A stretch of 64,000 nt of DNA from contig JAEDES010000001.1 in NCBI GenBank assembly GCA_016293205.1, positions 27,447 to 91,446 on the forward strand. The letters run 5' to 3'. This DNA is from Bacilli bacterium. Its GTDB lineage: Bacteria; Bacillota_I; Bacilli_A; RF39; UBA660. Of the stretch, positions 12,780 to 14,229 are shown piece after piece. The notes beneath the pieces were generated by a model, which ran no database searches, was not told where the DNA came from, and saw only the letters and a program-made list of their open reading frames with translations. Every line of letters starts with the position of its first letter. Position 1 is the first letter of the stretch. The position numbers were made by a program, and so were the translations under genes.

Positions 12780-13058
12780 TTAAAGTTCTTTTCTATCTTC
12801 TGCAATCATTTCATCTGTTACAAGAGCCATTCTTCCTGCTTCTTGTTCAACACACGCAACAATTGAATCACGATTCGTTCCAACATAATCTCTTATCGCT
12901 TTAGCATGTGCTTTAAGTTTTTCTGATTCAACTTTGTTATATAATGAATCCATACTTTCATGAATGTCATCTAATACATTTTTCAATTTATCAGCTGATG
13001 TTGCTACGTCTACTACAGTTCCACCAACTACATCAACCTTTACTTCTACTTGAGCCAT
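12780..13058 (-). CDS. Small helical protein, the partner in WXG100-like pair 2. Its C-terminus is AEDRKEL.
   Basis: 92-aa protein whose AEDxxEL tail is shared with the 13574..13852 protein. Lies 22 nt downstream of the 13081..13377 gene. Confidence 0.45.
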   Translation of the reverse strand: MAQVEVKVDVVGGTVVDVATSADKLKNVLDDIHESMDSLYNKVESEKLKAHAKAIRDYVGTNRDSIVACVEQEAGRMALVTDEMIAEDRKEL

Positions 13059-13080
13059 TTGTTTTATTCATTCCTTTCTT

Positions 13081-13377
13081 TTATTGCATTGGTCTTGCAT
13101 AAATATCATTAACTAGTTCATTAACTCTAGAATCTTCTTTGATATCAGCTTCTAAGCTATTAGTAATTTTATTGATATCTCCTTTTAACGTTTCTAATTT
13201 TCCCATTGCATCATCTAATCTAGTCTGAATATCTGTTCCTGCTGTACCAGCTAATCCAGTATTTGCAAATGAAGTTTCTACTTCTCCATATACTGTTGAA
13301 ATATCTGTTTCTGCTGATTCCATTGCCACTGACATGTTATGTAAGTCTTCTCCTGAATAACTAACTATTGTTGCCAT
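13081..13377 (-). CDS. WXG100-superfamily-like (LxG-variant) small helical protein, pair 2
   Basis: 98-aa protein with a central motif NTGLAGTAGTDIQ. The paralogous motif SGLQGTAGQEMQ occurs in the 13880..14155 protein, positioned like a WxG turn. Confidence 0.5.
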   Translation of the reverse strand: MATIVSYSGEDLHNMSVAMESAETDISTVYGEVETSFANTGLAGTAGTDIQTRLDDAMGKLETLKGDINKITNSLEADIKEDSRVNELVNDIYARPMQ

Positions 13378-13447
13378 TAATTTAATTCACCTCCATATTT
13401 TCTAAGAATAATTCTCCTGATGATTACTCTTTATCCTCATATTATTT

Positions 13448-13476
13448 ATTTTATAGTTTTTTGCAACTATTATCAA
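13448..13476 (-). promoter_or_regulatory. Sigma-A-type promoter for WXG100-like pair 2 and the downstream genes
   Basis: Minus-strand TTGATA, 17-nt spacer, TAAAAT. The -35 lies at 13471-13476 and the -10 at 13448-13453, about 70 nt upstream of the 13377 start. Confidence 0.45.
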
Positions 13477-13506
13477 GTCTTTTGGTGAAAATTGTTTTAT
13501 TTTACA

Positions 13507-13538
13507 TAAAAAAAAAGTATATGATTTTTCATATACTT
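13507..13538 (-). terminator. Rho-independent terminator between WXG100-like pair 1 and pair 2
   Basis: Perfect 9-bp stem AGTATATGA, loop TTTT, then TCATATACT at 13516-13537. On the minus-strand transcript it is followed by a T9 run, seen as A9 at 13508-13516 on the plus strand. Confidence 0.7.
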
Positions 13539-13573
13539 TAACTTTATCATAGATATAAACTAAAAACTTATAA

Positions 13574-13852
13574 TTATAGTTCTCTTGTATCCTCAGCAAC
13601 TAATTCTGTACGGATTTTATCTAATGTTTTAGCAGTATTTTCAACTTCTTTTGCTGCTACATCAATGCGTGATACTACTTCATTAAATTTATTTAAATAT
13701 CTTGTAATCCAATCAGATTCAGTAGCTGTGTTGATTCCTGTAACAACTTCTCTATGAGAATCTGCTTTTGATCTCATATCAGTAGCAGTACTTCTTAAAG
13801 CGTTAGCCTTTGTTTCCATCATTTGGATTTGCGCTTCTTTTTGATTTGCCAT
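13574..13852 (-). CDS. Small helical protein, the partner in WXG100-like pair 1. Its C-terminus is AEDTREL.
   Basis: 92-aa protein with the shared AEDxxEL tail. Lies 27 nt downstream of the 13880..14155 gene. Confidence 0.45.
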   Translation of the reverse strand: MANQKEAQIQMMETKANALRSTATDMRSKADSHREVVTGINTATESDWITRYLNKFNEVVSRIDVAAKEVENTAKTLDKIRTELVAEDTREL

Positions 13853-13879
13853 TTTAATTACTTCCTTTCTTTCTTATTA

Positions 13880-14155
13880 TTATCCATTTATAAACCCTGA
13901 TACTTTGCTATCAGATGCTTGTTGAGATCTAACTTTATCATCTGCCATTGTAGCAACATCTTGTGCTAATTTTTCAGCTTCAGCTACATTGTTAGTTAAC
14001 GCTGTAACAACTCTTTGCATTTCTTGTCCAGCTGTTCCTTGTAATCCTGATTTGTCAGCATCGTCTTTAACTGCTGCTGCTTGTGCTTTTAATTCAGCAA
14101 CTACTGATTCTGCTTCAGTTTTGATTGCGATAATTTGTTCTGTTGAATAGTTCAT
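13880..14155 (-). CDS. WXG100-superfamily-like (LxG-variant) small helical protein, pair 1
   Basis: The ORF track extends to 14215. The true start is probably MNYSTEQ at 14155, because a GGAGGTG ribosome-binding site sits 8 nt upstream. That gives 91 aa with a central SGLQGTAGQEMQ motif. Confidence 0.5.
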   Translation of the reverse strand: MNYSTEQIIAIKTEAESVVAELKAQAAAVKDDADKSGLQGTAGQEMQRVVTALTNNVAEAEKLAQDVATMADDKVRSQQASDSKVSGFING

Positions 14156-14229
14156 TAATTCTTCACCTCCGTATTTTTCTTTTAAGAATAATGTGATCCT
14201 TACGACCGAACCCATATCCTTATGTATTC

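Follow-up and report, generated by a model that had tools for sequence, protein, structure and literature searches.

Paired helical-hairpin proteins encoded beside a giant, hypervariable gene: candidate export helpers of a type VIIb-style effector module in uncultured gut Bacillota

What are two pairs of small genes doing upstream of a giant, hypervariable gene? The question is raised by a 64,000-nucleotide stretch of contig JAEDES010000001.1 from a Bacilli bacterium (the window; G+C content 27.7%), in which the minus strand carries, in this order, the genes A1 and B1, a hairpin with a T-run, A2 and B2, a long hairpin, C, D, the giant gene E and a second terminator-like hairpin (Table 1). An earlier reading of the letters alone, here called the original prediction, had proposed four small minus-strand open reading frames (ORFs), now A1, B1, A2 and B2, and all four are present. 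Near-identical copies of the locus come from gut metagenome assemblies (including pig gut) and metagenome-assembled genomes (MAGs) only. An affiliation with segmented filamentous bacteria, which the G+C content and the gut sources might suggest, has no support; two antigen peptides of these bacteria are absent. We consider it probable that the region encodes the small proteins of a type VIIb-style effector module, in which the A and B proteins serve as export helpers of the giant protein E.

The A proteins form a family of their own. Over about 90 residues, A1 and A2 show 24% identity (BLASTP, E=2e-5), and they have (S/T)GLxGTAGxxxQ in common, which bears out the GLxGTAG motif originally noticed in both; the turn sequences are SGLQGTAGQEMQ in A1 and TGLAGTAGTDIQ in A2. 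Translation of A1 most likely begins at the ATG at position 14155, because this codon is preceded by GGAGGTG and the homologues are all about 91 amino acids (aa) long; a longer mechanical reading gives a 111-aa ORF reaching 14215. When 1.84 billion representative proteins were scanned by HMMER with a profile of A1 and A2, 15 matches were obtained, about 11 of them true relatives of 84-100 aa, and all relatives keep (T/S)G(L/I)xG(T/S)AG as well as an N-terminal (S/N)Y(S/D)xx(D/E)(L/I). A word-index homology search with A1 found only two close clusters, with no names and no Pfam domain, and a sequence search of solved structures with A1 and the A profile gave nothing significant. In the AlphaFold2 model of A1 (predicted local distance difference test score, pLDDT, 87), helix 5-35 is joined to helix 40-90 by the turn SGLQ, and the motif accordingly sits where the WxG or LxG turn had been expected.

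B1 and B2 were originally thought to be dissimilar outside their C-terminal tails, which is incorrect: they are full-length paralogs, and an independent B profile matches B2 with E=1e-9. The common hydrophobic-xxxD-xxEL tail itself is confirmed, as LVAEDTREL and MIAEDRKEL both conform to (L/M)(V/I)AEDxxEL (BLASTP of the tails, E=0.005), and it recurs in relatives as LITTEDTKEF, LIIAEDNNIQE, LIAEDTRGVQ and LINEDTRAVAMQ. The B profile retrieved nine close clusters from 5.8 billion proteins, again without names or Pfam domains. The AlphaFold2 model of B1 (pLDDT 90) consists of helix 2-43, a turn and helix 47-91; helix-turn-helix hairpins of about 100 aa are predicted for A1 and B1 directly and for A2 and B2 by paralogy. 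The lack of such a fold, which would have told against the original prediction, is not what the models show. Judged by these searches, both families are real, tiny and devoid of a Pfam domain, and they occur in a single clade of uncultured gut Bacillota only.

A remote likeness to the WXG100 proteins suggests a connection with type VII secretion. We aligned both families by local hhalign runs with 105 PF06013-annotated EsxA proteins, seeded from annotated Listeria and Enterococcus loci. B aligned over 77 columns (P=2.7e-4, probability 41%, score 27.1), with its conserved Trp on the W of WxG and L84 and D88 of B1 on V84 and D88 of EsxA, i.e. the HxxxD position, and A aligned over 65 columns (P=6e-3, probability 6%, score 20.1), with GLxG on WxG; both scores lie above all nulls (reversed, at most 14; column-permuted, at most 19). 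In a Foldseek search of the PDB with B1, the top 13 matches were all WXG100 proteins, as were about 38 of the top 50, including EsxA of S. aureus (template modelling score 0.78, root-mean-square deviation 1.7 Å) and of Geobacillus, a WXG100 protein of group B Streptococcus, EsxB of B. anthracis and CFP-10/ESAT-6. The recurring sub-threshold Pfam matches fall in a single clan (EsxAB: WXG100, WXG100_2 and EspC), with best WXG100 (PF06013) E-values of 0.07 for A (2 of 13 members), 0.0022 for B (1 of 11) and 0.009 for A', a counterpart of A in the locus L036 of a wider clade introduced below, all of them under the gathering cutoff of 27.3 bits.

Like EsxA and EsxB, A and B are hairpins of about 95 aa with a conserved turn motif, encoded by paired adjacent genes, and B has its hydrophobic-x-x-x-Asp in the register of EsxA V84/D88. 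They differ in that A has (T/S)G(L/I)xG(T/S)AG in place of W-x-G and B has (T/S)ESxW without the Gly (B2 has no Trp), in that their hidden Markov model scores stay below gathering, in that their genes do not adjoin EssC and in their limitation to the one clade. As regards the C-terminal HxxxD/ExxhxxxH pattern, B has HxxxD but ends four residues later, and A is without it. PF11328/TIGR04197 gave no match at E ≤ 1 for A1, A2, B1 or B2 (one B relative, E=0.034), DUF3958 matched no member of either family at E ≤ 1, and the motif DxxTxxxGN occurs in neither family. The sequences suggest that A and B are remotely akin to the WXG100 clan, B more clearly than A, and not members of it. What stands of the proposed WXG100/Lap-like nature is thus the predicted hairpin fold and the remote WXG100 similarity, not membership of WXG100, DUF3130/TIGR04197 or DUF3958 by curated models, and the likeness of the B tail to type VII export motifs holds for its register with EsxA, not for its first residue, which is L, M or I rather than the F of the Lap1 FxxxD.

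What do the partner genes add? D, suspected from the start to be DUF4176-like, is a bona fide DUF4176 protein (PF13780, E=3.8e-21, 75.4 bits against a cutoff of 25). DUF4176 is a chaperone family of type VIIb toxins, and for its small members binding to hydrophobic helices in membrane-acting toxins has been proposed (PMC12478183). The link of the module to type VII secretion would draw on DUF4176, the WXG100-like features and operon logic, of which only the DUF4176 chaperone gene is firm. The arrangement is reminiscent of the Ltc chaperones of this family (PMC12478183) and of the seven-protein TelE assembly (bioRxiv 10.64898/2026.03.12.711312), where the DUF4176 gene likewise lies between small helical genes and the effector gene and the effector likewise has a hydrophobic, Gly-rich region of membrane-active appearance; it differs in that D belongs to the 'small' class (109 aa), reported to be rarely adjacent to the toxin gene (PMC12478183), and in that a binding site of D on E is suggested by the co-conservation of D with residues 96-200 of E. 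C is present in every complete unit of the kind described below and gave no usable hhalign signal against the other families, nor did A against B.

The giant itself begins with a hairpin of the B kind. An alignment of 20 sequences covering the first 100 residues of E matched the B family by hhalign with a probability of 78% (P=1.9e-5) over 78 columns in register, residues 7-85 of E falling on residues 5-81 of B1, with a score of 31.8 against 20.2 for the reversed and at most 14.3 for the permuted nulls; we infer from this that the cargo starts with a B-like hairpin. The same region gave no usable hhalign signal against EsxA, A or the LXG domain, and a sequence search of solved structures with it returned nothing significant. 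LXG (PF04740) was not matched in the N-terminal 282 aa of E even at E ≤ 10, nor in four homologues. After the hairpin follow a conserved, Gly/Ala-rich hydrophobic region (approximately aa 96-275, EGFLTGFEQxxDGLMTGAAVxCGWVG), about 850 aa of charged AEKAxKEA-type repeats, CxxC motifs, a TD repeat, a C-terminal hydrophobic helix and an acidic tail. In the gene segment 7996-8352, about 30 Thr-Asp dipeptides come after three Cys motifs of the type CP(x)CG(Q)NPCVCP, and this region has weak matches to staphylococcal Sdr/Clf repeat regions. Annotated analogues of a WXG100-type N-terminus next to a DUF4176 gene exist on plasmids of Clostridium felsineum (p337) and Bacillus cereus (pBC07-2): these proteins, annotated as 'WXG100 family type VII secretion target' by the Prokaryotic Genome Annotation Pipeline (PGAP), likewise start with a WXG100-type hairpin that continues into a longer protein, but they pass the WXG100 model, are much shorter (277-317 aa) and are not accompanied by A-B-C genes.

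How the small genes belong to the giant can be read from related loci, where A-B-C-DUF4176-giant is the repeating unit, with one pair per giant. Such units occur in L015 (two in tandem), L016-18, L022 and L030/31, and a MAG with window-like flanks has two complete tandem units. A scan of 185,579 species genomes with the N-terminus of E found one locus, in which the end of a giant gene is followed by A-B-C-D-giant; scans of Joint Genome Institute (JGI) metagenomes and of viral contigs found none, and the lack of a viral-contig match speaks against descent from a phage. Scanning metagenomes with D added 38 further loci, two of them with A-B(-A-B)-C-D. The wider clade comprises 26 loci (L036, L065, L063 and 23 further, L033-L061) with A' (95 aa) and B' (91 aa), most of which also have C' and an E' of about 620-920 aa, with D after E'. 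The centre of A', SGDI(Q)GDPA, is again an (I/L)xG turn, and B' carries a Trp at its centre and the tail ALKYSxE; A' matches A (P=6e-4) and B' matches B (P=5e-3) by hhalign, both in register. Some contigs with this wider-clade module, A'-B'-C'-E'-DUF4176, come from human gut assemblies, and the module of L036 adjoins cotZ-like and ftsW/spoVE-like genes.

The window itself contains two unit heads, as the region 5' of A1 is a paralog of the promoter and leader of the second unit: unit 1 consists of A1-B1 with a promoter and terminator of its own, and unit 2 of A2-B2, the long hairpin, C, D and E. A sister lineage shows the same arrangement, two pairs and then C-D-E. Such an autonomous pair could suggest that the A-B pairs, pair 1 above all, which has a promoter and a terminator to itself and no giant next to it, are secreted substrates themselves, namely EsxA/EsxB-like heterodimers with an extracellular function of their own. 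This would be in keeping with their WXG100-like folds and register and with the preservation of pair 1 as an intact unit in at least four lineages at 38-96% identity, and an elevated, poorly sampled ratio of non-synonymous to synonymous substitutions (dN/dS) would fit exposed proteins; among closer strains the ratio is 0.6-1.0 for A1, B1, A2 and C versus 0.11-0.14 for D and E, with fewer than 10 changes per gene, too few to conclude. In all other loci, however, each A-B pair is followed by C, DUF4176 and the giant, A and B co-vary with the N-terminus of the giant, and the terminator after B1 is the very element that lies 3' of the giant gene in L015 and L022, which suggests that unit 1 is a truncated unit. 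We regard a substrate role of the pairs as unlikely. The related proposal that pair 1 is expressed independently 'like esxA' retains its two promoter-headed units, as judged by conservation, and is weakened by the finding of one A-B pair per giant in related loci.

A truncated unit might be dead, and pair 1 would then be the non-functional remnant of a deleted second unit. Related genomes do have two complete tandem units at this site, and an end-of-unit terminator directly follows B1. But the A1 and B1 ORFs are intact, their ribosome-binding sites, motifs, promoter and leader are kept, and the two-pair arrangement persists in genomes whose proteins have diverged to 41-45% identity, so decay strikes us as very improbable. 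Unit 1 looks like a unit that kept A-B only and yet remained intact and conserved across these lineages.

The control regions of the two units are paralogous. The promoter-like block of unit 1 aligns with the promoter 5' of A2 and with unit heads in L015 and L016, and it went unlisted in a consensus scan because its -35 element matches at three of six positions. The new promoter expected between the pairs is there, TTGATA and TAAAAT being nearly invariant in five loci. Both units are headed by paralogous 5' leaders of about 70 nt (14156-14229 and 13378-13447, minus strand) with the common pattern AGGATA...GG..C.T.AGGA...ATTATTCTTA...GGAGGTGAA, which are also found in L015 and L016 and have no Rfam match. 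The terminator between the pairs had been called strong: hairpin and T-run are present and conserved, but the energy is modest (consensus fold about -10 kcal/mol; surrounding 86 nt, z=-2.7), and a GC-demanding scan missed it. The element is kept in four diverged loci with two compensatory pairs, among them L016 and, directly 3' of the giant gene, L015 and L022.

The hairpin between B2 and C is of another kind. It has 24 consensus pairs in five loci, seven of them with compensatory changes, is absent in L022 and lies about 10 nt upstream of the ribosome-binding site of C. It is probably an element of mRNA processing by RNase, of stability at the 3' end or of attenuation, and as a result A-B would probably differ in abundance from C-D-E. 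The original prediction that pair 2 is co-transcribed with the 123-aa, DUF4176 and giant genes had missed this conserved hairpin, which makes simple co-transcription at equal levels doubtful.

Which parts of the locus vary together? We compared the window with L016, at the DNA or protein level as stated. The flanks and everything downstream of approximately position 7950 have 97-100% DNA identity, versus 40-80% from 14550 to approximately 7950, and within this variable block the D gene forms an island of 93-94% DNA identity that coincides exactly with the DUF4176 gene. At the protein level, A1, B1, A2, B2 and C have 41-48% identity; residues 1-95 of E have 56% and residues 96-200 have 83%, within conservation ranges of 40-56% and 66-83%, respectively. 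The C-terminal end of the giant and the three genes downstream of it are conserved. This pattern of co-variation fits a contact of A, B and C with the N-terminal hairpin of E and of D with the conserved hydrophobic region. It also sets E apart from LXG polymorphic toxins, since the variable part is N-terminal and central, on the partner side, and the C-terminus and downstream genes are 97-100% conserved, which is the opposite of LXG toxin loci.

The reading that we favour would work as follows. A and B, and probably C, would bind the N-terminal hairpin of E to form a helical pre-secretion bundle, in which the LxG turn on A would come to lie together with the h-x-x-x-D tail (h, hydrophobic) on B, the two constituting a composite export signal, comparable to WxG and YxxxD/E in EsxA-EsxB or to LxG and FxxxD in LXG-Lap1, while D might keep the conserved hydrophobic, Gly-rich stretch of E covered until the protein is exported. 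A precedent in gene order is provided by Lap1 and Lap2 (DUF3958), the targeting factors of LXG toxins, Lap1 (DUF3130/TIGR04197) being marked by DxxTxxxGN and by an FxxxD close to where helix 2 ends (PMC9600955). There, too, two small WXG100-like helical proteins are encoded directly 5' of a large effector, and one partner has h-x-x-x-D near the end of helix 2, with LxG predicted nearby in the complex (PMC9600955). The differences are substantial, as A and B have no Pfam or NCBIfam match and no DxxTxxxGN, the tail starts with L, M or I where Lap1 has F, the turn of the LxG type is on the separate small protein A instead of on the effector, and E has no LXG domain, only the B-like hairpin of about 95 aa.

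Small helical partners that bind the helical end of a non-LXG effector in a pre-secretion complex are also found in S. aureus, where EsxB, EsxC and EsxD accompany the nuclease EsaD, and in the case of TlaA1 and TlaA2 with TslA. The present proteins have no sequence relation to either system, and they would serve a 1459-aa repeat protein with a C-terminal hydrophobic helix, in a locus where it is the N-terminal, partner side that varies and not the toxin/immunity side. That the recognition side is the variable one is unusual.

Several observations weigh against the proposed export role. EssC, EsaA, EssB, EssA, EsaB and canonical EsxA are encoded neither in the window nor in the 10 kb past its right edge, where there are housekeeping genes only, and around 38 related loci the surroundings out to 10 kb are free of type VII core genes as well. 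No A or B protein reaches the curated threshold of WXG100, WXG100_2, EspC, DUF3130/TIGR04197 or DUF3958, and when every protein of the locus and the family members were scanned against Pfam, NCBIfam and PHROGs, DUF4176 alone passed. The hhalign probabilities against EsxA given above are low for A and moderate for B. Foldseek E-values are non-significant (best 0.036), as expected for short hairpins, A1 retrieves WXG100 proteins mixed with generic hairpins at no significant E-value, and helical hairpins resemble many folds in any case. Finally, the hydrophobic helix and acidic tail at the end of E mean that the giant may stay in the envelope as a resident protein and not be a toxin that is released.

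These points lead to a reading without type VII secretion, in which E is a giant protein of the envelope or spore surface that is inserted in some other way, its structural or assembly partners are A, B and C, and DUF4176 acts as a generic holdase. The lack of a type VII core gene near any of 39 loci would follow naturally, the locus adjoins cotZ in several genomes, and the C-terminal hydrophobic helix, Cys-rich motifs and TD repeats of E are typical of wall-spanning proteins. However, type VIIb effector loci often lie far from the core locus, the promoters are sigma-A-like and not of the sporulation type, the likeness of B and of the N-terminus of E to WXG100 proteins is in register and extends to the HxxxD position, and DUF4176 has been studied in type VIIb contexts only (PMC12478183). 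We give this reading distinctly less weight than the export of E with the aid of A and B, and judge it a little less likely even than a substrate role of the pairs.

If A and B are indeed export helpers, a bolder version of the idea can be envisaged, which we put forward as speculation with a low chance of being right: the locus would encode a naturally 'split' export signal, with the LxG turn on A, the h-x-x-x-D arm on B and a bare WXG100-like hairpin on the cargo, which would serve a giant, hypervariable, membrane-anchored surface protein, maybe without a canonical EssC machine, and the fast-evolving block would be a response to pressure from host or phage on a complex that is exposed. That such a signal might work without a canonical EssC-type machine is suggested by the lack of one near any of the 39 loci. 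Cargo recognition in type VIIb systems is still an open question, and the current model is a composite signal formed by an LxG-type turn and an F/YxxxD arm from different chains of a helical bundle. Should the export role hold, the module would offer a simple natural system in which this model could be tested, with the two elements on separate 90-aa proteins and a minimal cargo hairpin. It also adds three protein families without annotation (A, B and C) and a new effector architecture to the putative type VII repertoire of uncultured gut Bacillota.

Table 1. Features of the two units, with positions in the window
Feature	Position	Strand	Description	Basis
A1	13880..14155	-	91-aa helical hairpin (predicted), SGLQGTAG at LxG-type turn	ORF and ribosome-binding site, AlphaFold2, relatives, hhalign
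A2	13081..13377	-	98-aa paralog of A1, TGLAGTAG at predicted turn; the more typical A member	BLASTP, 13-member alignment
B1	13574..13852	-	92-aa helical hairpin (predicted), conserved Trp just C-terminal to turn, tail L84-x-x-x-D88	AlphaFold2, Foldseek, hhalign
B2	12780..13058	-	92-aa paralog of B1, tail M-x-x-x-D, no central Trp	Independent B profile (E=1e-9), alignment
C	12322..12693	-	123-aa protein, family without annotation	No family match; always between A-B pair and DUF4176/giant genes
D	11948..12277	-	Small DUF4176 protein, 109 aa, Ltc-type chaperone family	PF13780 above gathering
E, residues 1 to ~95	11624..11908	-	B-like (WXG100-like) hairpin domain, conserved G-W/h turn	hhalign
E, remainder	7529..11623	-	Rest of 1459-aa giant (gene 7529-11908)	Translation, hydropathy, composition
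Promoter-like block, head of unit 1	14230..14258	-	TTGCAT, 17 nt, TACAAT, then conserved ~75-nt leader to A1 start	Alignment
Terminator-like element ending unit 1	13508..13539	-	11-bp AU-rich stem (13539-13514), AAAA loop, T-run to 13508	Fold, conservation
Sigma-A-type promoter, unit 2	13448..13476	-	TTGATA, 17 nt, TAAAAT, then conserved leader	Scan match 10/12; nearly invariant in five loci
Intercistronic hairpin B2/C	12716..12771	-	Perfect 26 bp, no U-tract	-30 kcal/mol, z=-7.1
Terminator-like hairpin and T-run	7479..7511	-	Directly 3' of giant gene, putative end of unit 2; AAAGGATTTCGTT / AACGAAATCTTTT	Read from sequence

Downstream of the giant gene, three genes (5951-7420, 5445-5876 and 5142-5435, minus strand) are always found in window-type loci, and the terminator-like hairpin 3' of the giant makes them, i.e. 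the genes for the 489-aa, 143-aa and 97-aa proteins, look like a separate, highly conserved unit. The 489-aa protein weakly resembles glycosidase folds of the (alpha/alpha)6 type, with a sub-threshold match (GH76, E=4e-4), and the 143-aa and 97-aa proteins belong to no family.

The surroundings of the module are made up of housekeeping and sporulation genes, namely those for CotZ, FtsW/SpoVE, PrsW, ABC-F, MreCD, RadC and the valyl-tRNA synthetase, the last of which is preceded by a T-box leader (28480-28683). Twelve tRNA genes are clustered at 39795-40962 (minus strand). A 794-aa ORF (23330-25714, minus strand) has no Pfam match at E ≤ 1e-5 and is conserved in L015 and L016, where it occupies the matching position. 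An 85-aa ORF on the plus strand (4479-4736), rich in Asn, Tyr, Gly and Pro and with a central hydrophobic stretch, has no Pfam match, and an ORF of equal length lies at the matching place in L010 and L016.

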